Shown here in pieces: positions 1 through 64,000 of a DNA stretch of 64,000 nucleotides. The position numbers and the translations under genes were made by a program. Position 1 is the stretch's first letter. Every line of letters starts with the position of its first letter. Where the stretch lies: NCBI GenBank assembly GCA_030390025.1, contig CM059432.1:63614001-63678000 (forward strand), read 5' to 3'. Under the pieces are notes generated by a model. The model was not told the DNA's origin, did not search any database, and saw nothing but the letters and a program-made list of their open reading frames with translations. Origin of the DNA: Squalus acanthias. Lineage: Eukaryota.

Positions 1-1013
1 GTAGAAACTGCCCAATTTTTGTCCTATTGAAATGAGAATCAGGTGGCTTCTACAAAGGGTGGTGAATGCACTCCACCAGATTACTGCCCATGTGTTGAAG
101 ACATAAATTTGCCCAATATGTGCAAAATAATCTGGGACAGTGGACCGCAGGGTGAACAATGAACCTTTTTACTGATGAGGTACACATCGGAAATGGTATG
201 GGTTGCCATTGTAAGATTTGAATCTTTCCAAAGGAAGGAAAAGCAGATGTGCTCCACTCAAGTGGATTAGAAGCTCCCAACTTAATGGACCTGTTGGCTG
301 TTATGAAAAATAGCTGCCAGATAGCCCCCAGCTTCACAGAGGAGTCCTGCTGCACCTTGGAAAGAGAGTATTAAACTTACATCAGGTTCCAGTAGCTTGC
401 TGGCAGACCCTTCATCTGTAATGCCCACTTTCTTTAGCTGGTTTTCTCTGTTGGCAGGTGCTGGGCAAAACCCGGGGAAAATGCCATGGGTGGCATTATA
501 ATATCACTCTTGTGCGATTCACATAAAATTTATGTGGCCCCGTCTGCTTCAGCTACAGGCTTCCCTGGAAATGTACATTAAAGGAGCCAGAGACCTGACA
601 TAATGTGCCTCCACCCTTTTTTATTCTGCCTAGTGTCCTGGAAACAGATGGACACAGAACGCTAGGCTAAGGAATATCATATTCTCGAGAGAGTTGTTTG
701 CTAATGTTAATGGAAACATTAATGCATTTATTTTAAATTGCCTTCATTAGAATAGTGGGTAGAGAACTGAATAAATTATTTAACTAAAAAACTCATCTTG
801 TGGGCAAATGAGGACATAATGAAAGCTGAACATTGTCGAAAAGTTCAGTTAAAACTGAAAAGTACAATATATTATGAAATGATCAGGCTAATTCCATGAT
901 ATGTGTAGATTTTTACTTCTCAGGAAGAACTTGGGAGTCACTGGAAGAAGAGATAGCTATCAAGGAAGTTTGGTAAAAATTAACTAATTTGAAATTCGTA
1001 ACAACAAGGATAA

Positions 1014-2514
1014 TAAGACTTGTGCTCCAGGACTAACCGCACCTCTAGCCAAACTGTTCCAGTACAGCTACAACACTGACATCTGGAAAATTGCCCAGGT
1101 ATATCCTGTCCACAAAAAGCAGGACAAATCCAATCAGACCAATTACCGCCTCATCAGTCTACTCTCAATCATCAGCAAAGTGATGGAAGGTGTTGTCGAC
1201 AGTGCTATCAAGCAGCACTTACTCACCAATAATTTGCTCTTCAGTTGTCAGCTTGGGTTCTGCCTGGACCACTTGGCTCTAGACCTCATTACAGCCTTGG
1301 TCCAAACATGGACAAAGGAGCTGAATTCCAGAGGTGAGGTGAGAGTGACTGCCCTTGACATCAAGGCGGCATTTGACCGAGTGTGGCATTAAAGAACCTT
1401 AGTAAATTTGAAGTCAATGGGAATCAGGGGGAAAACGCTCCACTGGCTGAAGTCATACCTAGCACAACGGAAGATGGCTGTGGTTGTTGGAGGCCAATCA
1501 TCTCAGCCCCAGGACATTGCTGCAGGAGTTCCTCAGGGCAGTGTCCTAGGCCCAACCATCTTCAGCTGCTTCATCAATGACCTTTCCTCCATCATAGGGT
1601 CAGTAGTGGGGATGTTCGCTGATGATTGCACAATGTTCAGTTCCATTCGCAACTCCTCAGATAATGAAGTATTCCGTGACCGCATGCAGCCAGACCTGGA
1701 CGACATTCAAGCTTGGGCTGATAAGTGGCAAGTAACATTCGCGTACCAGGCAATGGCTATCTGGAACAAGAGCGAGTCTAACCACCGCCCCTGGACATTC
1801 AATGGTATTACCATCACCAAATCCCCCACCATCAACATCCTTGGGGTCACCATTGACCAGAAACTGAACTGGACCAGCCACATAGATACTGTGACTACAA
1901 GGGCAGGTCAGAGGCTGGGTATTCTGCGGCAAGTGTCTCACCTCCTGACTCCCCAAAGCCTTTCCACCATCTACAAGGCACAAGTCAGGAGTGTGATGGA
2001 ATACTCTCCACTTGCCTGGATGAGTGCAGCTCCAACAACACTCAAGAAGCTTGACACCATCCAGGAGAGAGCAACCTGTTTGACTGGCACCCCATCCACC
2101 ACCTTAAACATTCACTTCCTCCGCCATCGGCGCACCATGGCTGCAGTGTGTACCATCTACAAGATGCACTGCAGCAACTCACCAAGGGTTCTTCGACAGC
2201 ACCTCCCAAATAAACCCGCCACCTCTACCACCTAGAAGGACAAAGGCAGCAGGCACATGAGAACACCATCACCGCCAAGATCCCCTCCAAGTCACACATC
2301 ATCCTGACTTGGAAGTATATCGACGTTCCTTCATCATCGCTGGGTCAAAATCTTGGAACTCCCTACGTAACAGCACTGTGTGAGTACCTTCACCACACGG
2401 ACTGCATCAGTTCAAGAAGGCGGCTCACCACCACCTTCTCAAAGGTAATTAGGGATGGGCAATAAATGCTGACCTTGCCAGCGACGCCCACATCCCATGA
2501 ACGAATAAAAAAAA
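1014..2514 (+). mobile_element. 5'-truncated non-LTR retrotransposon, CR1/L2-group 'LINE family B', copy 1 (RT pseudogene plus 3' tail)
   Basis: RT motifs [23 protein letters not shown] and MFADD in ORFs 1180-1392 and 1408-2235. The 3' tail GGGATGGGCAATAAATGCT...CATCCCATGAACGAATAAAAAAAA recurs near 19500 and 35245. Confidence 0.92.
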
Positions 2515-3420
2515 TGTTGTTATTACTAACTTCAATAGAAAAACAAAATAGTTAAACAGATATGAAATTATCTGAGTGAAACATGGAGGTTATGTGAAAG
2601 ATCAGGCAATAAGCAGAGACCTAAAACTCCTAAATGAGGTCACAAACTACTGTTCACACAAGCTGAAATTTATTAAAAATTTCTTTAAGCCACAACAAAA
2701 TTCTAAGATCATTTCAAACTTATTGCATTCCTTGTAATCAATGATATCTTAAAAAATCCAACTTGCATTTTGAAAAAAAAAGAAAGATTGATTAGGAATT
2801 TGAATATATGTGAAAATGGCAGTGGAAAAATAGATTGCCTATAGGGAAAGTTTAAAAGGTTATTTTCTAATTGTGTAATATTGAGAGTTAAGAGTATAAT
2901 TTCAAGGAGATTAACTATGGAGCTAATGGTTAGGATATAGAGAAGCAATTTAAAAAAAATAAACTAAGAGGGAATAGATTTACTGGAACAAATTCACAAG
3001 AAAAATGAAGAGATGCTAAAAAGCAAATTAAAGATAGAAAAAATAAATTTGAATAGAGAAAATGTCTCACGAGCAATCACAAATAATTTGTCATTTCTAC
3101 TTGTGGGAGGTCGGTTCTGGGAGAACAAGTACACATATGAAAATGTGAAAAGGACTGTGGATGAGAATTCAAATAATTTAATTCATTAGTGTTAATAGCA
3201 GTGAAATTATAGAAATATTTCAAACCTTGCTGAACTATTTTCTGGGTGTTAGAAGGGTGTCTAATTAAAGTACTAAAATATGAGGAAATTGTTTTCAAAA
3301 TAACAGGCTGAAAGTAGATGAGCTGAAGGCATTTGGTCTTCAATATTAAAACAAATTAAAGGAATAGGCAGAGACGCTTTGGCTGAGATCTTCAATTGCT
3401 CATTAGAAACTGGGGAAGTC
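2515..3420 (+). pseudogene. Old, AT-rich degenerate CR1 ORF2 remnant, probably continuous with ~720-1013 and split by LINE B
   Basis: Ends in a CR1 RT-start-like segment (..ALAEIFNCSLETGEV). A-rich sense strand with no long ORF. Confidence 0.5.
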
Positions 3421-13997: not shown

Positions 13998-14813
13998 TGT
14001 TCCAGTACAGCTACAACACTGGTATCTATCCGACAATGTGGAAAACTGCCAGTGACAAAAAGCAAGACAAATCCATTCTGGCCAATTACCGCCCCATCAG
14101 TCTACGCTCAATCATCAGCAAAATGATGGAAGGTGTCGTTGACAGTGCTATCAAGCGGCACTTACTCACCAATAACCTGCTCACCGATGCTCAGTTTGGG
14201 TTCCGCCGGGATCACACAGCTCCAGACCTCATTACAGCCTTAGTCCAAACATGTCCAAACATGGACAAAATAGCTGAATTGCAGAGGTGAGGCGAGAGTG
14301 ACTGCCCTTGACACCAAGGCAGCATTTGACCGAGTGTGACATCAAGGAGCCCTCGTAAAATTGAATTCAATGGGAATCAGGGGAAAACTCTCCACTGGCT
14401 GGAGTCATACCTAGAACAAAGGAAGATGGCTGTGGTTGTTGGAGGCCAATCATCTCTGCCTCAGGACATTGCTGCAGGAATTCCTCAGGGCAGTGTCCAA
14501 GGCCCAACCATCTTCAGCTGCTTCATCAATGACCTTCCCTCCAACATAAGGTCAGAAGTGGGGATGTTCGCTGATGATTGCAGGGTTCAGTTTCATTCAC
14601 AACTCCTCAGATAATGAAGCAGCCCATGCCCACATGCAGCAAGAGTTGGATGACATTCAAGCTTGGTCTGATAAGTGGTAAATAACATTCATGCCACACA
14701 ATTGCCAGGCAATGACCATCTCCAATAAGAGAGAGTCTAACCACCGCCCCTTGACATTCAACAGCATTACCATTGCCAAATCCCCCACCATCAACATCCT
14801 GGGGGTAACCATT

Positions 14814-14950
14814 AGAAACATAGAAACATAGAAAAATAGGAGCAGGAGTAGGCCATTCGGCCCTTCGAGCCTGCTCCGCCATTCAATATGATCATGGCTG
14901 ATCCTCTATCTCAATACCATATTCCTGCTCTCTCCCCATACCCCTTGATC
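14814..14950 (-). mobile_element. CR1 (HER1-like) 3'-end fragment
   Basis: (AGAAACAT)n tail plus GGCCATTCGGCCCTTCGAGCCTGCTCCGCC. It is the reverse complement of 50981-51109. Confidence 0.9.
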
Positions 14951-15846
14951 AGAAACTTAACTTTGCCAGCCACATAAATACTGTGGCTGCAAAAGAATGT
15001 TACAGTGCTGGAGAGGGAGGATGAGCTGGAGGGGTCAAGGACAGAATCTATCTGGCTAAAGTTAAGAAATAGTAGAGGTGCCATTACACTACTAGGTGTA
15101 TTCTATAGACCACCAAATAGTGGGAAAGATATGGAGGAGCAAATTTGCAGAGAAATTACAGAGAGGTGCAAGAACTATAGAGTAGTAATAATGGGGGACT
15201 TCAACTATCCTAATATAGACTGGGATTGTAATAATGTAAAGGACAGAGAAGGGGAAGAATTTCTGAAGTGTGTTCAGGAGAACTTTCTTGATCAGTATGT
15301 TTCCGGCCCGACGAGGGAGGAGGCATTGCTGGATCTGGTTCTGGGGAATGAGGTAGGTCAAGTGGAGCAAGTGTCAGTAGGTGAACATTTAGGGAACAGT
15401 GATCATAGTATCATAAGGTTTAGATTAGCTATGGAAAAGGACAGGGAGCAATCTAGAGTAAAAATGTTTAACTGGGGGAAGGCCAATTTCAGTGGAATGA
15501 GAATGGATCTGGCCCGGGTAAACTGGAATCAAAGATTGGCAGGCAAAACTGTAGTGGAACCGGGCTGCCTTTAAAGAGGAAATAGTTCGGGTACAGTCGA
15601 GGTACATTCCCACTAGGGGGAAAGGTAGGGCAAGTAAAGTCAGAGCTCCTTGGATGACAAAACACATAGTCAATATGATGAAGCAGAAAAAGAGTGCATA
15701 TGACAGATGTCAGGTTGCAAATACAGCTGAGAATCAGGCTATATACAGAAAGGTCAGAGGAGAAGTATAAAAGAAAATAAGAGGGGCAAAGAGAGGGTAT
15801 GAGAATAGAATGGCAGCCAACATAAAAGGTAATCCAAAGGTCTTCT

Positions 15847-16934: not shown

Positions 16935-18109
16935 TTCTATAGGCATATAAATAGTAAAAGGGTAGTAAGAGGAGGCCGATTAGGGATCAAAAAGGAGACC
17001 TATGTATGGAGGTAGAGGGTATGGCTGAGGCACTAAATGAGTACTTTGCATCTGTCTTCACCCAGGAAGAGGATGCTGCCATAGACTTAGTGAAGGAGAA
17101 GGTAGTGGAGACACTTGATAGTATAAAAATTGATAAAGGAGAGGTATTAGAAAGGCTGGCTGTACTTAAAGTAGATAAGTCACCAGGAGCAGATGGGATG
17201 CATCCTCGGATGCTGAGGGAATTGAGGGAGGAAATCGCGGAGGTACTGGCCATAATATTCCAATCCTCCATAGATACGGGGGTGGTGCCAGAGGACTGGA
17301 GAATTGCAAATGTTACACCATTGTTCAAAAAAGGGTGTAAAGATAAACCCAACAACTACAGCCCAGTCAGTTTAACCTCGGTAGTGGGGAAGCTTTCAGA
17401 AACAGTAATCAGGGACAAAATTAACAGTCACTTGGATAGGTGTGGATTAATTAAGGAAAGCCAGCATGGATTTGTTAAAGGCAAATCATGTTTAACCAAC
17501 TTGATCGAGTTTTTTGATGAGGTAACAGAAAGGGTTGATGAGGGTAATAAGGTTGACGTAGTGTACATGGATTTCCAAAAGGCATTCGACAAAGTGCCAC
17601 ATAATAGGCTCGCCAGCAAAGTTGAAGCCCATGGAATAAAAGGGACAGTGGCAGCATGAATACGGAATTGTCTAAATGACAGGAAACAGAGAGTAATGGT
17701 GAACGGTTGTTTTTCGGACCAGAGGAACATATACAGTGGTGTTCCCCAGGGCTGCTTTTCTTGATATATATTAATGACTTAGACTTGGGTGTACAGGGCA
17801 CAATTTCAAAATTTGCAGATGACACAAAACTTGGAAGTATAGTGAACCGTGAGGAGGAGAGCAAAGACATAAACATGCTGGTGAAATGGGCGGACACGTG
17901 GCAGATGAAATTTAATGTAGAAAAGTGTGAAGTGATACATTTTGCTAGAAAGAATGAGGAGAGGACATATAAAGTAAATGGCGCAATCCTAAAAGGGGGT
18001 GCACAAACACATATACCTGGGGTTATATGTGCACAAATCATTGAAGGTGGCAGGGCAGGTTGAGAAAGCAGTTAAAAAGGCTTACGGGATCATGGGCTTC
18101 ATAAATAGA

Positions 18110-18315: not shown

Positions 18316-19502
18316 TTCATAAATAGAGGTATAGCGTACAAAAGTGTGGAAATTATGATGAACCTTAATAAAACACTGGTTTGGCCCCAACTGGAATACT
18401 GTGTCCAATTCTGGGTACCACACTTTAGGGAGGATGTGACGGCCTTAGAGAAGGTGCAGAAAAGATTTATGAGAATGATTCCAGGAATGAGAGACTTCAG
18501 TTACATTGATAGACTGGAGAAGCTAGGGTTGTTCTCCTTGGAGCAGAGAAGATTGAGAGGAGATTTGATAGAGGTGTCCAAAATCATGAGGGGTCAGGAC
18601 AGACTAGATAGAGAGAAACTGTTCCCATTGGCAGAAGGGTAGAGAACCAGAGGACACAGATTTAAGGTGATTGGCAAAAGAACCAAAAGCGATGTAAGAA
18701 AAAACTTTTTTACGCAGCGAGTGGTTAAGATCTGGAATGCACTGCCTGAAAGGGAGTTGGATAAGTATCTGAAGGAAAAAAATTTGCAGGGCTACGGGGA
18801 AAGGGCATGGGAGTGGGACTAGCTGAGAGTCAGTGCGGGCTCGATGGGCCGAATGGCCTTCTTCCGTGCTGTAACCATTCTATGATTCTATGATCCCATT
18901 CTAAGAGCAAGTCAGAGGCTGGATATTCTGCGGCGAGTGTCTCACCTCCTGACTCCCCAAAGCCGTTCCACCATCTACGAGGCACACGTCAGGAGTGTGA
19001 TGGAATACTCTCCCCTTGCCTGGATGAGTGCAGCTCCAACAACACTCAATAAGCTTGAAGCCATCCAGGACAAAGCAGCCCGCTTGATTGGCATCCCATC
19101 CACCAGCTTAAACATTCACTCCTTCCACTACTGGCGTACCGTGGCTGCAGTGTGTACCATCTACAAGATGCACTGCAGCAACTCGCCAAGGCTTCTTCGA
19201 CAGCACCTCCCAAACCCCCGACCTCTACCACCTAGAAGGACAAGGGCAGCAGGCACATGGGAACACCACCACCTCCAAGTTCCCCTCCATCCTGACTTGG
19301 AAATATATCGCCGTTCCTTAATAGTTGCTGGGTCGAAGTCCTGGAACTCCTTCCCAAACAGCACTGTGGGAGTGCCTTCACCAGATGGACTTCAGCAGTT
19401 CAAGAAGGCGGCTCACCACCACCTTCTCAAGGGAAATTAGGGATGGGCAATAAATGCTGGCCTTGCCAGCGATGCCCACAGCCCATGAACGAATAAAAAA
19501 AA

Positions 19503-20759: not shown

Positions 20760-22363
20760 TATGGTGTTCAACAGAGTGCAGGAAAAATATATTCTGCTAA
20801 AAGGAAAGAACAAACTAATCAATGAGACTCTATGGATGATTAAAGCGATAAGGGAACAATTGAGGGTAAGGAAAGAGGCATACATTAAGTACACAGGCAG
20901 CAGGGAGCGCATGGTAAGAGAGAATACGAAAAGATTTGGAGAGAAGTCAAAAAAACAATTAGGGAGGCAAAGAGGAACTAGGAAATTAAATTATCAAGGA
21001 ACATAAAACAAAATAATAAAATATTTTATCGGCACATCAATAAAAAAAGGAAGGTTGGGATGGGAATAGGGCCACTAAGAGATAGTCAGGATAATACCAC
21101 AGGTAACGATAGAGAGATGGCGGAAATATTAAATAATTATTTTGCTTCAGTATTTACCAGGGAGATAGAACAGGTGGACATGATATTGGATGATGAGATT
21201 AGTAATGAGATAAGTGCATTTAAAATAAAAAAAGGGGATATATTAAATAAATTAATCAAACTCAAAGAGGATAAAACCCCTGGTCCGGATGGGTTACATC
21301 CACGCATTTTTAAAAAGTCTAGGGAAGAGATAGCAGAGGCTTTACTATGCATATTTAATAATTCATTAGAAAAAGGTTTAGTGCCAGAGGACTGGTGGAT
21401 AGCTAATGTAATACCTATATTTAAGAAGGGGGATAGAACATGTCCAGGGAATTATAGACCAGTCAGCTTAACATCGGTGGTAGGAAAAATAATGGAATCC
21501 CTACTAAAGGAGAAAATAGAAGAACATCTAGAAACCAAAAATATAATAACAAATAGTCAGCATGGATTTCAAAAGGGAAAGTCTTGCTTGACTAACCTTA
21601 TTGAATTTTTTGAAGAGGTAACAGAGAGAGTAGACAATGGTAATGTAGTAGATGTAATTTATCTGGATTTTCAAAAGGCCTTCGATAAGGTACCCCATAA
21701 TAGACTGATGAACAAGGTCAGAGAATGCGGAGTCAGGGGTTAGCAGAATAGATTGCTGGCTGGCTTCAGGACAGAAAGCATTGAGTGGGAGTAAAGGGTA
21801 GCTATTCACAGTGGCAGAAGGTGGGTAGTGGTGTTCCACAAGGATCAGTGCTGGGTCCACTGCTGTTCACAATTTACATTAACGATTTAGACTCAGGAAT
21901 CAAAAACACAATTTCTAAATTTGCGGATGACACCAAATTGGGGGGGATAGTCAATACTGAGGAGGACTGCAACAAATTACAGGAGGACATGAATAAACTT
22001 GCAGAATGGGCACATAATTGGCAAATGAAGTTCAACACAGATAAATGTGATGTGTTACATTTTTGGTAGGAAGAATAGGGAGGTCACTTATCACTTGGAG
22101 GGTGAGAGTCTAGGTGGAGTAGAGGAACAAAGGGATCTAGGAGTAGAAATACACAAATCACTAAAAGTTGTGACACAGGTTAGCAAGGCCATAAAAAAAG
22201 CAAAACAAGCACTAGGGTTTATTTCTAGAGGGATACAATTGAAAAGTAGGGAAGTTAGGCTAAACCTGTATTGAACCTTGGTTAGACCACACTTAGAGTA
22301 CAGCGTACAGTTCTGGTCACCATATTATAAAAAGGATATAGAGGCACTGGAGAGGGTGCAGAG
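20760..22363 (+). mobile_element. CR1 LINE internal fragment (AT-rich subfamily), RT pseudogene
   Basis: ORFs 21060-21743 and 21785-22069: [46 protein letters not shown]. Confidence 0.93.
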
Positions 22364-22796
22364 TGAAGGGATAATTACTAGTCCTAGCCCCTTTAGGGCT
22401 ACCCAGATCAGGCGTATTCCCCAGACGTTCACTTTCAACTAAAGTTTAAGGTAGCCGAATCCTAAAGATGATTAATTGGGTCTAAAGGTCTGGACCATCT
22501 CTCCCTAAAGGAAAGGAACAACCTGAAGATGTTACCATCCTCCAGATAGCACTTTTAATAAGTTTAGCTAGACTGTAACTTCCAGATATTATGAGGGTCC
22601 GGAAAACTCCCCCAGAATTCTGCAACTCCTCACCAAAGAGCGTACAGAGATTGAGTTCACGAGTTTGATACAGAAGTATTATGTGAGACAATTCTAAAAA
22701 TATATAGATTTATTAAAGAACCGACATGTAATTTACAGTTGTTGATTCAATCGCAACATTAACAGTTCCAAAAAGAGAAAGCTTACAATTCTATTA
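22364..22796 (-). mobile_element. Partial second copy of the 15847-16934 LTR (U5/R part only)
   Basis: Aligns with 15847-16290 (TTACTAGTCCTAGCCCCTTT...GTTCACTTTCAACTAAAG). Abruptly replaced by CR1. Confidence 0.9.
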
Positions 22797-23303
22797 TCAG
22801 CCTGACATCGGTAGTGGGGAAAATGCTAGAGTCCATTATAAAAAATGTAATAGCAGAGCACTTGGAAAACAGTGACAGGATTGGACAAAGTCAACATGGA
22901 TTTACAAAAGGTAAATCATGCTTGACTAATCTACTGGAATTTTTTGAAGATGTAACTGGTAGAATAGATAAGGGAGAACCAGTGGATGTGGTGTATTTGG
23001 ACTTTCAGAAGGCTTTCGATAAGGTCCCGCATAAGAGATTAGCGTGCAAAGTTAAAGCACACGGGATTGGGGGTAAGGTACTGTCTTGGATAGAGAATTG
23101 GTTGGCAGACAGGAAGCAAAGAGTTGGAATAAACGGGTCTTTTTCCGAGTGGCAGGCAGTGACTAGTGGGGTACCGCAGGGATCGGTGCTAGGACCCCAG
23201 CTATTCACAATATATATAAATGATCTAGACAAGGGAACTACAGGAAACTCTTGTTTAACCGGCACCTAAATATCCGGAATTCTCTCTTAACCGGCAAAAA
23301 TCA

Positions 23304-28276: not shown

Positions 28277-31200
28277 CTACTTGTGTTTCATCTTTCTCTT
28301 ACACATGCTTCTACGAGGTGCTACCCCTATGGCTTCAGCAGAGGTAGAGGCAGCCTGCTCACTTCCCTGCTGCGACTGCTTAGACACTTTTGGCGGATGT
28401 CCTCTGGGTTTTGGAGCCTGTGAGGGCCCCGCCAAAGTCTGCTCCTCCTGCAACTGTGCAGGGGCAGACTCGGCCATCGGGATCCGAGGAGCCAGGAGGG
28501 AGTTGGGGCAACGGGGGAGAAGTGTGAGCACTTTGAGAGGAGCCCTCACTCTCATGTCCCCTCTCACCATCATCCCTCTCATGGGCCACCCACACTTCCC
28601 TGCTAGCAAGGAGCTGGAGAGCACCTTGCTGCACAGCGGTGGGGCATGAGCACCCACGTCTGCATTGAGATCCCACCTAGACAGGAGGTCTATGAGCCTC
28701 TGCCATCTATTCTCTATTGAGACCATGTGCTCCTGTGAGTGGCACATTAGCTGTTCCATGCAGGTGACCATCCTTTCCATAGAAGAGCACACCGTCCCCA
28801 TCACCTGCGACATGGTGGTGCTCATGTTGGAGATGGACTCCTCCATTCCCTGGACATTTGCAGACATCGCAGTCGCACAACCTGTCAAATCTCCTGCACT
28901 TCTTGCTACACCTCCAGGATTGCCCTCTTTCTGGATGGCTCCCGAGGCTCAGCGTCTGCATGCAGCTGAGCATAGAAACATAGAAACATAGAAGATAGGA
29001 GCAAGAGTAGGCCATTCGGCCCCTCGAGCCTGCTCCGCCATTTAATGAGATCATGGCTGATCATCCAAATTCAGTACCCTGTCCCTGCTTTCTCCCCATA
29101 TCCCTTGATCCCTTTAGCCTTAAGAAATATATCTAATTCCTTCTTGAATATATTTAATGAATTGGCCTCAACTGCCTTCTGTGGTAGAGAATTCCACAGG
29201 TTCACCACTCTCTGGGTGAAGAAATTCCTCCTCATCTCAGTCCTAAATGGCTTACCCCTTATCCTTAGACTGTGACCTCTGGTTCTGGACTCCCCCGCCA
29301 TCGGGAACATCCTTCCTGCATCTACTCTGTCTAGTCCTGTTAGAATTTTATAAGTTTCAATGAGATCCCCTCTCATTCTTCTAAACTCTAGCGAATACAA
29401 GCCCAATCGTCCCAATCTCTCTTCATACGTCATTCCTGCCATCCCAGGTATCAGTCCGGCGAATCTTCGCTGCACTCCCTCCATGGCAAGAACATCCTTC
29501 CTCAGATAAGGTGACCAAACCTGCTCACAATACTCAAGGTGTGGTCTCACCAAGGCCCTGTACAACTGCAGCAAGACATCTTTGCTCCTGTACTCGAATC
29601 CTCTCGCTATGAAGGCCAACATACCATTTGCCTTCTTAACCGCCTGCTGCACCTGCATGCTTACCTTCAAGGACTGGTGCACAAGGACTCCCAGGTCTCA
29701 TTGCACTTCCCCTTTTCCCAATCTATTGCTGTTCAGATAATAATCTGCCTTCCTGTTTTTGCCACCAAAGTGGATAACCTCACATTTATCCACATTATAC
29801 TGTATCTGCCATGCATCTGCCCAATCACCCAACTTGTCCAAATCATACTGGAGTTTCTCTGCATCCTCCTCACAACACACACGCCCACCCAGCTTTGTGT
29901 CGTCTGCAAACTTGGAGATATTACATCTAGTTCCCTCGTCTCGATCATTAATATATTGTGAATAACTGGGGTCCTAGCACCGATCCCTGCGGTACCCCAC
30001 TAGTCACTGCCTGCCACTCGGAAAAAGACCCGTTTATTCCAACTCTTTGCTTCCTGTCTGCCAACCAGTTCTCTATCCAAGTCAGTACCTTACCCCCAAT
30101 CCCATTTGCTTTAACTTTGCACGCTAATCTCTTATGCGGGACCTTATCGAAAGCCTTCTGAAAGTCCAAATACACCACATCCACTGGTTCTCCCTTATCT
30201 ATTCTACCAGTTACATCCTCAAAAAATTCCAGTAGATTAGTCAAGCATGATTTACCTTTTGTAAATCCATGTTGACTTTGTCCAATCCTGTCACTGTTTT
30301 CCAAGTGCTCTGCTATTACATCTTTTATAATGGACTCTAGCATTTTCCCCACTACCGATGTCAGGCTTACCGGTCTGTAATTCCCCGTTTTCTCTCTCCC
30401 ACCTTTTTTAAATAGTGGGGTTACATTAGCTATCCTCCAATCCATGGGAACTGTTCCAGAGTCTATAGAATTTTGGAAGATGACCAGCAATGCATCTACT
30501 ATTTCTAGGGCCACTTCCTTAAGTACCCTAGGATGTAGATTATCAGGCCCTGGGGATTTATCGGCCTTCAATCCCGTCAATTTCCCTAACACCATTTCCC
30601 TACAAATACAGCAGAGCTGGGAGCATCAAGCGCCCTCCGGCGAGGAGTCTCCATCTGCTGTCCCTGTCTCCACCATCTGCTCTTGCTCACTTGTAATTGT
30701 GAGACACCAGGTGACAACACTACTCTATCTCGTGTGGCACCCACCAAGGTGTGCGTCTCTGCGCTGGTGCTGGGTGCACTTAGGTCTGGTGACAGTGCAC
30801 CCTCAGAGGCTGGGAGCTCCTCTGAGAAGTCGTCTTCCTCTTCCTCCTGGACAGTTGGGGGTGGGGGGGGCTCTTGATGGACCTGTGGGTAGTAAAGAGA
30901 TGAGTTAGATATATTATATCAAGATGGGTACAGATACCATTATGCGCATGGTGAACATTCACTGGCTGCTGACATCAGTCCCCATATGAGTGACTGCTGT
31001 ATGCCATGTGGCTTTATGAGATGTAATTCTGTTATCAGATTGCTGAGATGTCCCCCTCTCTCCGTCTTCCACCTCCAGCTGCTCTGTGACTCCTGACACT
31101 TCCAGGGTAACCTCCTCTGCAGATGTTAAGGTGGCCAATGATGGAAGCCCACCTCCGGTTCTCTCCCTCTCCCTCTTATTGTGGGCTCTCCTCTCCTGCA

Positions 31201-34447: not shown

Positions 34448-34472
34448 TGATTTAAAAATGTAATAGTAAAAC

Positions 34473-35250
34473 ATTTGCGCCACACAAGTTGCAGGCAATG
34501 ACTATCTCCAACAAGCGAGAGTCTAACCACTGCCCCTTGACATTCAACGGCATTACCTTCATCGAATCCCCCACTCTCAACATCCTGGGGGTCACCATTG
34601 ACCAGAAACTTAACTGGATCAGCCACATAAATACTGTGGTAACAAGAGCAGGTCAGAGGCTAGGTATTCTGTGGCGAGTGTCTCACCTCTTGACTCCCCA
34701 AAGCCTTTCCACCATCTACAAGGCACAAGTCTGGAGTGTGATGGAATACTCTTCACTTGCCTGGATGAATACAGCTCCAACAACACTCAAGAAGCTCGAC
34801 ACCATCCAGGACAAAGCAGCCCGATTGATTGGCACCCCATCCACCACCTTAAACATCCACTCCCTCCACCACCGGCGTACCGTGGCTGCAGTGTGTAACA
34901 TCTACAAGATGCACTGCAGCAACTCGCCAAGGCTTCTTCAACAGCGCCTCCAAAACCTGCGACCTCTACCACCTAGAAGGACAAGGGCAGCAGACGCATG
35001 GGAACACCATCACCTCCAAGTTCCCCTCCAAGTCACACACCATCCTGACTTGGAAGTATATCACCGTTCCTTCATTGTTGCTGGGTCAAAATCCTGGAAC
35101 TCCCTCCCTAACAGCACTGTGGGAGTACTTTCACCACACGGACTGCAGCAGTTCAAGAAGGCGACTCACCATCACCTTCTCAATGGCAACTAGGGCTGGG
35201 CAATAAATGCTGGCCTTGCCAGTGACTCCCACATCCCATGACTGAATAGT
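34473..35250 (+). mobile_element. LINE family B, copy 3 (3' ~780 bp)
   Basis: ORF 34489-35193 is homologous to the C-terminal parts of copies 1 and 2, with the same tail. Confidence 0.92.
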
Positions 35251-51109: not shown

Positions 51110-52724
51110 CATTTCCACTTTCCTGCACTATCCCCATATCCTTTGTTTCCCTAATATCCAAAAATCTATCGATTTCTGTCTTGAATATACTCAACGACTG
51201 AACCTCCACAGCACTCTGGGGTAGAGAATTCCAAAGATTCACCACCCTCTGAGTGAAGAAATTTCTCCTCATCTCAGTCCTAAATGGCCGACCCCTTATT
51301 CTGAGACTGTGAGCCCTGGTTCTAGACTCCCCAACTAGGGAAACATCCTCCCTGCATCTACCCTGTCAAGCCCTGTAAGAATTTTGTATGTTTCAATGAG
51401 ATCACCTCTCATTCTTCTAAACTCTAGAGAATATAGGCCTAGTCTACTCAATATCTCCTCTTAGGACAATCCCCCCATCCCAGGAATCAGTCTGGTGAAC
51501 CTTCGTTGCACTCCCTCTATGGCAAGTATATCCTTCCTTAGGTAAGGAGACCAAAACCGTGCACAATACTCCAGGTGTAGTCTCACCAGTGCCCTATATA
51601 ATTGCAGTAAGACATCTTTACGCTTATACTCAAATCCTCTTATAATAAAGGCTAACATACCATTTGCTTTACTAATTGCTTGCTGTACCTGCATGTTAAC
51701 TTTCAGTGATTCATGTACAAGGACACCCAGGTCCCTTTACACACCAACATTTCCCAATCTCTCACCATTAAAAAAAATACTCTGCTTTTCTATTTTTCCT
51801 ACCAAAGTGGATAACTTCACATTTCTCCACATTATATTCCATTTGTCATGTTCTTGCCCATTCACTTAGGCTGTCTATATCCCCTTAAAGCCTCTTTGCA
51901 AACTCCTCACAACTTACATTCCCACCCAGCTTTGTATCATCAGCAAACTTGGATATATTATATTTGGTCCCCTCATCCAAATCATTGATATGGATTATGA
52001 ATAGCTGAGGCCCAAGCACTGATTCTTGCGGTACCCCACTAATTACAGCCTGCCAACCTGAAAATGACCTGTTTATGCCTACTCTTTGTTTTCTGTCCGT
52101 TAACCAATCCTCAATCCATGCTAGTTTATTACCCCCAATCCCATGAGCCCTAATTTTGTTTAATAACCTCTTGTGTGGCTCCTTATTGAATGCCTTCTGA
52201 AAATCCAAATACACCACATCCACTGGTTCCCCCTTATCTATTCTGCTAGTTACAACCTCAAAAAACTCTAACAGATTTGTCAAACACGATTTCCCTTTTA
52301 TAAATCCATGTTGACTCTGCCCAATCCTATTATTATTTTCTAAGTGCCCTGTTACCACGTCCTTAATAATAGATTCTAGCATTTTCCCGACTACTGATGT
52401 CAAGCTAACTGGTCTGTAGTTCCTCGTTTTCTCTCTCCCTCCTTTCTTAAATAGTGGGGTTACATTTGCGACCTTCCAATCCACGGGAACCGTTCCAGAA
52501 TCAATGGAATTTTGGAAGATGACAACCAATGCATCCACTATCTCTGTAGCCACCTCTTTCAAAACCCTAGGATGTAGGCCATCAGGTCCAGGGGATTTAT
52601 CGGCTTTCAGTCCCATTAATTTCTCCAGTACTTTTTTTTACTAATACTAAATTCTTTCAGTTCCTCATTCTTCACTATTTCTGGGAGTTCTTTTTGCATC
52701 TTCTTCCGTGAAGACAGACACAAA

Positions 52725-63155: not shown

Positions 63156-64000
63156 AGCGTACGTTAGCATCGTGGTTATGTTAATGGACTAGTTCTCCAG
63201 AGGCCTGGACTAATGATCTGGAGACATGAGTTCAAATCCCACCACAGCAGCAGCGGAATTGAAATTCAGTTAATTAAATAAATCTGGAATAAAAAGCTAG
63301 TATCAGTAATGGTGACCATGAAACTACCAGATTGTCGTAAAAACCCATCTGGTTCACTAATGTCCTTTGGGGAAGGAAATTTGCCGTCTGCACCTGATCT
63401 GGCCCATGTGTGACTCCAATGTGGTTGGCTCTTAACTGCCCTCTGAAATGGCCTAGCAAACCACTCAGTTGTACCAAACCGCTACAAAGAAGCATACTAA
63501 GAATAAAACTGGATGGACCACCTTGCATCAAACTCAGCACCGGACATGACGAAGGCACACCCACCCCAGTCGAGCCTGTAAAGACCTCCTTGCTAACATC
63601 TGGGTACTTGTGCCAAAATTGGGAGAGCTGTTCCACAGACTAGTCAAGCAATAGCCTGACATAGTCATACTCACAGAATCATACCTTTCAGCCAATGTCC
63701 CAGACTCCTCCATCACCTTGGTATGTCCTGTCCGACCGGCAGCACAGTGGTATACAGTCAGGAGGGGTTGGCCATGGCAGTCCTCAACATAGACTCTGGA
63801 CCCCATGAAGTCTCATGGCATCAGGTCAAACATGGGCAAGGAAATCTCCAGCTGATTATCACCTACCTCCCTCCCTCAGCTGATGAATCAGTACTCCACC
63901 ATGTTAAACACCACTTGGAAGAAGCACTGACATTAGCAAGGGTACAGAACCTGGGTGGGGGACTTCAATGTCCATCACCAAGAGTGGCTCAGTAGCACCC
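63156..64000 (+). mobile_element. 5' end of a LINE: tRNA-like SINE-type head followed directly by an APE endonuclease pseudogene (runs off the window)
   Basis: A-box TAGCATCGTGG at 63165-75 and B-box GAGTTCAAATCC at 63228-39. From ~63586 it reads LLANIWVLVPKLGEL...PDIVILTESYL...EVSW...TYLPPS...GDFNVHH. Confidence 0.8.

Follow-up and report, generated by a model that had tools for sequence, protein, structure and literature searches.

By definition, short interspersed elements (SINEs) rely on RNA polymerase III (Pol III) for transcription and are non-coding and dependent, while long interspersed elements (LINEs) are transcribed by Pol II and are coding. The window analysed here, a 64,000-nt stretch of the Squalus acanthias genome, ends in a sequence that carries marks of both, a tRNA-like head followed by the endonuclease of a LINE, and raises the question of whether this is a single element or a chance arrangement. 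Pol III-type A and B boxes split by an internal duplication were found where an earlier note on this DNA had described them, and the head/body-endonuclease junction contains neither an A-run nor a SINE tail (Table 1). The note's view that there is no room for an ORF1 also holds, with 329 nt ahead of the frame and no long frame upstream. What it took for a non-coding body of ~350 nt is non-coding over most of its length, but the last ~110 nt are an in-frame coding leader.

Table 1. Features of the Zenon copy at the 3' edge of the window and of other Zenon copies within it.
Feature	Position in window	Strand	Remarks
tRNA-Thr(AGT)-like head; sharp element 5' end	63157..63246	+	aligns with Thr-AGT genes of this genome
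Pol III type-2 A box	63165..63175	+	motif position
Two 21-nt units in tandem duplication, each an anticodon-arm-like hairpin	63184..63225 (starts 63184, 63205)	+	
Pol III B box	63228..63239 (core 63230-63239)	+	motif position
Conserved structured body	63247..63442	+	fold in family majority: long interrupted helix and tetraloop hairpin
Hairpin with 7-nt tRNA-like anticodon loop (63453-63459)	63443..63468	+	predicted 5' half of a PKI-like pseudoknot
AUG-less coding leader	63475..63585	+	in-frame GCT 63481-63483, predicted pseudoknot partner
APE endonuclease domain, broken in window copy	63586..64000	+	starts LLANIW..; RT and tail past window (L031 to 4772)
5'-truncated Zenon copy	1015..2514	+	majority 1797-3313, 91%
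Fragmented internal Zenon copy	13998..14995	+	
5'-truncated Zenon copy	18903..19502	+	majority 2702-3313, 92%
5'-truncated Zenon copy	34470..35247	+	majority 2528-3305, 94%

The window copy, which begins at ~63157, is a dead member of an abundant Zenon-type LINE family of sharks and rays. It is 86-91% identical to the family majority, contains no TTTT within 63156-64000, and its frame is interrupted by a stop codon (63652-63654) and by breaks close to 63720-63738 and 63952. Its continuation past the window lacks 405 nt, carries an insertion of 1.44 kb and then closes with the family tail; the insertion (L031:2869-4310) has 71-88% matches in L054, L228 and L231. Its reverse transcriptase (RT) and tail are matched at 85-94% by the four other pieces in the window, which establishes the suspected link to "LINE family B", a name assumed here to denote the window copies that match the Zenon element. 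RT pieces of canonical CR1 lineages also occur in the window (17192-17752, 21285-21740, 22796-23227, 29951-30547 and 51795-52586), at 33-39% identity to the Zenon RT.

With the second 21-nt unit removed, 47-49 of 74-75 positions of the head are identical to the genome's own tRNA-Thr(AGT), with an alignment score of 56-62 against 26 +/- 4 (maximum 38-45) for shuffled sequences; the score is 48-51 when both units are kept. ARAGORN at default settings found no tRNA in the window and the Rfam tRNA model gave E=1 at best, on a better-preserved copy, indicating that the head is a degenerate tRNA and not a tRNA gene. Two clusters of matches (G000 C25 and C26, L336-L344) are to tRNA-Thr(AGT) genes, and ARAGORN confirms L336 and L339. 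The T-loop A of the head showed no footprint of tRNA modification. Among 133 endonuclease-bearing copies, most of them retrieved with head-containing queries, 89 begin at positions 1-5. The tRNA-derived head with A and B boxes that characterizes SINE2 elements is present, but the non-coding and non-autonomous nature of a tRNA SINE is found only in short derivatives of the family and not in the full element.

The junction is not unique to this locus. All 40 scored matches to 63156-64000 (40 scored among 12,606 first-look candidates) span it, and the upstream flanks of these loci are similar in only 7 of 780 pairs, so it is shared by independent insertions; head and tail lie within 7 kb of each other at 27 of the 40. 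When the endonuclease alone was used as query, the head and/or body was found upstream at 27 of 29 loci, the remaining two copies being 5'-truncated at 409 and 467; full-length copies with a different 5' UTR and an ORF1, which the earlier note had named as grounds for rejection, were not seen among these loci. In an unbiased sample of 60 evenly spaced 10-kb stretches (600 kb), the family covers 22,389 of 600,000 bases (~3.7%). This sample contains six heads, of which two continue into the endonuclease, three belong to head-plus-tail SINEs and one is a fragment, and both copies that reach the 5' end of the endonuclease bear the head. Two junctions per 600 kb suggest, as a rough figure, some thousands to tens of thousands of them genome-wide. 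A full-length copy divided into 30 bins is covered in every bin by contigs from four other organisms, and head-to-tail joints occur there too. None of the sequencing runs that contain the element is catalogued as RNA; in runs guessed to be RNA it is found as assembled contigs, which show neither strand nor start.

Chance nesting of a SINE ahead of a 5'-truncated LINE, at this locus only, would draw on how densely SINE and LINE fragments are packed in this genome and on the lack of a consistent target-site duplication around the whole unit (the longest common strings are 4-8 nt in the 27 copies with both ends). It is contradicted by a junction that is the same at all 40 scored loci, whose flanks are unrelated, by the same start in published consensus sequences of five species and by the unbroken cover over the junction in the four other organisms, and is refuted, with a negligible probability left to it.

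The family majority is 3314 nt long and has a single frame of 973 codons (330-3251), with the endonuclease motif from codon 40. Pfam recognised PF03372/PF14529 in one sister copy and PF00078 in two further copies; an APE endonuclease and an RT in one ORF are what is expected of Zenon, in the CR1 group. Among 181 loci with hits, the non-CpG variants common to at least 15% of copies comprise 38 synonymous and 20 replacement changes, in contrast to 446 synonymous, 1597 replacement and 91 stop changes among singletons (P=7e-13, omega about 0.15). Because the frame is under coding selection, the source copies were translated while they bore the head. Together with the junction in all scored matches, this purifying selection supports the proposed autonomous tRNA-headed LINE, and the unit of head, body, ORF and tail is shown to be family-wide and under coding selection. 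No intact copy was present among 40 checked. The family is a mosaic of at least two subfamilies, with medians of 4.2% and 6.2% from their own majorities. A 17-nt deletion between identical hexamers recurs in the endonuclease (majority ~595-615, window ~63730-63745), with 14 short and 10 full forms among 35 matched copies, and microhomology deletions are abundant throughout the family.

Within the body, one pair, 192-264, is truly compensatory, being T-A in 103 copies of the main family and A-T in 14 of the old SINE. Another pair, 213-239, is frequently disrupted, with A-C in 17 copies of the main family and 11 of the old one, and the folding energy of the body is ordinary (z -0.69). The body has few common differences in the four other organisms. 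At the 3' end, a short A-run is present at most of the 92 ends listed, where T-run and A-run together total ~9 nt (T1A8 to T6A4), with AATAAA 50 nt upstream. A terminal Pol III terminator was considered and rejected at these 92 ends: mostly a single T precedes the A-run, and where the T-run is longer the A-run shortens, as if the boundary had drifted. The near-constant total suggests that the tail is short and templated, its boundary shifting, and is not the product of enzymatic polyadenylation.

The head also belongs to short elements. With the head alone as query, 14 of 29 loci run to the endonuclease and 15 are head-plus-tail forms. In 39 short forms the 5' part ends at 314-359 and the tail resumes at 3173-3259, so that from the LINE they retain the 5' end, as far as the first leader codons, and the 3' end. 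They fall into at least three differing groups: an old family with junction 340 to 3204, a single anticodon arm and the same body and tail (L346-L375), a series that retains the leader codons of the window subfamily, and a group with the 5' part ending at 322-328. The retention of LINE-specific coding codons in SINEs indicates a direction from LINE to SINE. The existence of these elements bears out the idea that the window element is the parent of a SINE by internal deletion: the short head-plus-tail SINEs are internal-deletion products of the Zenon LINE, with several origins, and many of their breakpoints may stem from secondary deletions nested within a small number of source SINEs. An older LINE with an unduplicated head was not found, as none of 22 old-SINE-type loci reach the endonuclease within 1.5 kb. 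In the proposed mechanism, the ORF2 protein would reverse-transcribe its own RNA in cis, template jumps at microhomologies would repeatedly yield head-plus-tail SINEs, and these would be mobilised in trans.

Elements with some of these properties have been described in other animals, among them, reportedly, SINE-capped 5' ends of BovB. In the bipartite SINEs derived from RTE and Vingi, and in Bov-tA, body and tail likewise come from the 5' and 3' ends of a LINE, and RTE-1_DAn and elements related to it contain tRNA-like sequence, a precedent for such a piece in a LINE (Kojima 2018, PMC5786205, as far as the accessible text goes). In that account the head was joined after the deletion and RTE and Vingi are the sole contributors, whereas the present Zenon is an autonomous CR1-group LINE that is already headed. 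The lepidopteran Zenon and its Persaeus derivatives are close in that a 3.3-kb single-ORF Zenon again gives recurrent derivatives retaining 5' and 3' ends; in the accessible part of that report Persaeus has no tRNA homology or Pol III promoter, in contrast to the shark deletion product, which is at once a typical tRNA SINE (PMC6740152). By their descriptions, SacSINE1 (Deu) and HE1 (V) share with the shark forms a tRNA head, a conserved body, a LINE-derived tail and the host group (PMC5499810 and PMC3747384, in part). By eye, the Zenon body is unlike the Deu, Meta and UCON3 alignments in the supplement of PMC7245038, and no Deu domain was seen in it against five Deu rows there.

The family has a published counterpart. 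Zenon elements from five elasmobranchs, all without ORF1, with a poly-A tail and grouped with crustacean elements, were reported by Stuart et al. (2026, PMC13343379, main text and supplement in part). The absence of ORF1, which had been thought unusual for a CR1/L2-group LINE, is real in the window element but ordinary in Zenon according to that source. SquAca_Zenon-1 in its supplement is 3314 nt long, equal to our majority, and the first 400 nt match by eye; the two also agree in a single APE-RT ORF, no ORF1, an A tail and crustacean relatives. From this sequence agreement, the window family is identified as the elasmobranch Zenon of Stuart et al., as far as the portions compared extend. Over the first 400 nt, compared by eye, the deposited consensus sequences of white shark, catshark, whale shark and a ray have the same kind of head and body, and those of coelacanth and hagfish have no such head. 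In the four sharks and the ray the A and B boxes come first, at consensus in all five despite an altered intervening sequence, and the downstream hairpin loop, GCTA and the frame are kept; the second head hairpin shows compensatory stem changes in two of the published consensus sequences, again by eye. The head, the SINE derivatives and the missing AUG, all present in the window family, are not described in the main text of PMC13343379, in which "tRNA" and "start codon" occur 0 times and "SINE" once. In the literature searched, which lay outside Repbase, Dfam entries and most subscription papers, a tRNA-headed shark LINE is nowhere described. Thus the Zenon LINE and its missing ORF1 were known, and the head had been deposited yet went unremarked in these sources.

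The nearest database proteins have 931-953 residues and 34-42% identity, and one of their clusters is named from Penaeus monodon; the ESM Atlas returned generic RT clusters only. In a quick tree of 60 rows, with no named Zenon among them, the family is separated both from the canonical CR1 clade of the host (98) and from L2, and its RT sits at an unresolved fork. A head or body was not found in invertebrate relatives, the blastn matches of 80 metagenome loci being confined to the RT core. Many of these 80 have a long upstream ORF, and they say little on the origin of the body because they are only 24-42% identical. Low-threshold ARAGORN hits that are tRNA-like (L153:1965-2039, minus strand, and L162:256-339) lie near the 5' part of distant metagenome LINEs and may be due to chance.

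How such an element would be transcribed and translated is the second question. Judging from its sequence, Pol III probably makes an uncapped 3.3-kb Zenon RNA without internal terminator, since the boxes are kept in five species, copies start at tRNA +1 and TTTT is lacking. On the sense strand, TTTT is absent from the 3314-nt majority and from both subfamily majorities, compared with 1.8-4.3/kb in five CR1 and 1.6/kb in L2 lineages of the host; all 80 distant relatives, mostly T-richer, have at least one. The expected count depends on the null used: 4.0 with a base shuffle (P=0.02), 1.9 with a codon shuffle (P=0.11), 1.6 with a first-order Markov model (P=0.19) and 0.5 with a second-order one (P=0.61). 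With a chosen set of non-canonical terminator motifs included, the absence has P=0.047, and the ORF contains fewer TTT runs than expected (5 against 11.3, P=0.004). No built-in terminator was found at the 92 3' ends. The terminator count that the earlier note had called for thus came out at zero, and this absence lends Pol III transcription modest support. The host RTE majority (L220, L239; 18% T) has no TTTT either in 1.7-1.8 kb, and RTE elements are also without ORF1.

As to translation, the first Met of the majority frame is codon 287, past the entire endonuclease. An in-frame ATG within 330-470 is present in only 14 of 124 copies, 11 of them at one CpG-decay site. An in-frame stop is present at 309, and 93 of the 124 copies have a further one at 327, a TAA just ahead of the leader; these 93 are themselves under selection (omega 0.18, P=4e-10). 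Variants in the leader comprise five synonymous and three replacement changes in the ORF frame, against one and seven in one of the other frames and one, six and one stop in the other, and favour the ORF frame from about 344. In the published Zenon consensus sequences, by eye and over the part compared, the open stretch of the frame likewise starts at these codons.

Just upstream of the frame a hairpin is predicted at 298-323 (pair probabilities 0.82-0.91), whose 7-nt loop has the form of a tRNA anticodon loop. The AGC of this loop could base-pair with the in-frame GCU (336-338), and the pairing may extend by one or two pairs on the flanks. The hairpin's anticodon arm is identical to the tRNA arm of the head at 12 of 15 positions. 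Variants in the stem preserve its pairing: for 303-319 the main family has A.C, 17 copies of the old SINE have G-C and the ray has A-U, and the pair 306-316 is G-U in 25 copies. In the four other organisms, positions 292-328 of the majority and the GCT show no difference at a frequency of at least 25% (except 316, a change of the reference copy itself), and spacer positions 329, 331 and 335 vary; SINE joints precede the GCU in three of the four. In a shuffle test devised after the hairpin was seen, 22 of 3000 sequences give a hairpin plus codon and 6 of 3000 the 4-bp version, and the same criterion finds a second site in the body. The three pseudoknot pairs are invariant and so give no covariation support. 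The loop U at 309 (window 63454) is changed in 26 of 142 copies. This T varies across unrelated haplotypes (13 G, 11 C and 2 A of 142), as does the T at 249, in the same five-letter context (11 G, 4 C and 2 A of 135), against a background T>G rate of 0.6%; the variability may reflect either polymorphism among source copies or misreading by the RT at a modified base.

These features resemble internal ribosome entry sites of the dicistrovirus intergenic region (IGR IRESs). By analogy with their PKI, the anticodon-like AGC loop would pair with the in-frame GCU and set the frame without initiator tRNA; such a modelled start is possible but falls somewhat short of an even chance, and the upstream in-frame AUG303, two codons ahead of a UAG, counts against it. 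The likeness to type 6 IGR IRESs, as presented in the accessible parts of PMC10516663 and PMC12221177, extends to a non-AUG frame, a conserved region of ~155 nt, a predicted 3'-terminal hairpin with an anticodon-like loop pairable with a codon at the frame start, and A-richness of both the spacer and the sequence downstream. PKII/PKIII, L1.1, SLIV and SLV, in contrast, were not recognised in the list of predicted helices of Zenon, and no IRES match was obtained in Rfam. Some type 6 subtypes are without SLIV/SLV, and the known cases in these sources are viral, "retrotransposon" occurring 0 times in the accessible text of PMC12221177; IGR IRESs in LINEs have been raised as a mere possibility (PMC3894237).

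The Pol III step has a rival in which the architecture is the same but the head, a piece captured from a SINE, no longer drives the autonomous RNA. Pol II, from a promoter in the body or by host read-through, would then make the full-length RNA, and the A and B boxes would have a function in the short derivatives or in RNA structure alone. That reading gains from the TTTT absence not being significant under codon or dinucleotide nulls, from the equally TTTT-free host RTE, and from the second head hairpin, whose stem is kept by compensatory change as a promoter alone would not need. Zenon can evidently work without a Pol III promoter, because the lepidopteran derivatives have neither one nor a tRNA, as far as the consulted portion of PMC6740152 goes. 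It is nevertheless unlikely, as the boxes remain at consensus in the five shark and ray LINE sequences despite the altered interval (by eye), copies start sharply at tRNA +1, the TTT runs of the ORF are depleted, and a capped RNA leaves the loss of the AUG unexplained.

The PKI-like start competes with other non-canonical starts, on either a Pol III or a Pol II RNA, that together are quite improbable. One route would begin at AUG303, with leaky read-through or re-initiation after the UAG. This AUG is in frame, in a strong Kozak context, in 103 of 124 LINE copies and is GUG in the old non-coding SINE, and both in-frame stops precede CAA, a leaky context for a stop codon. The second in-frame stop (TAA) in 93 of 124 copies, which are nonetheless under selection, speaks against it: two read-throughs would be needed in the youngest subfamily, and copies in which the UAG is opened mostly retain the TAA and did not take over. 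A near-cognate start could use ACG, the commonest codon at 339 (62 of 124), but this codon is ACA or AAA in other lineages. Frameshifting from the out-of-frame AUG358 is opposed by ATA at that site in 63 of 124 copies, and by eye no slippery heptamer was seen before the endonuclease start.

Taken as a whole, the preferred explanation, a tRNA-headed, AUG-less Zenon with a Pol III RNA, a PKI-like start and SINEs arising by internal deletion, has a slightly better than even chance of being right. A stronger version of it is rather doubtful: in this model the shark and ray Zenon would be a coding retrotransposon wholly outside the mRNA pathway. Pol III would transcribe it from its head without a terminator, it would be translated from a type-6-like, tRNA-mimicking IRES without cap, AUG or initiator tRNA, and the anticodon arm of that IRES would be a third copy of the tRNA arm of the head.

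A tRNA-headed LINE across sharks and rays provides a direct route from LINE to SINE by one deletion, and shows the origin or role of one conserved SINE body. Since the family makes up ~3.7% of the 600-kb sample, the annotation of shark SINEs and LINEs is affected whichever reading holds. If the Pol III and pseudoknot steps are correct, a 3.3-kb Pol III RNA can serve as an mRNA, and factorless initiation, known from viruses only in the sources consulted, would be used by a resident of a vertebrate genome. The stronger version, if true, would mean that an animal genome encodes a factorless IRES, within a LINE that is the parent of its own SINE.
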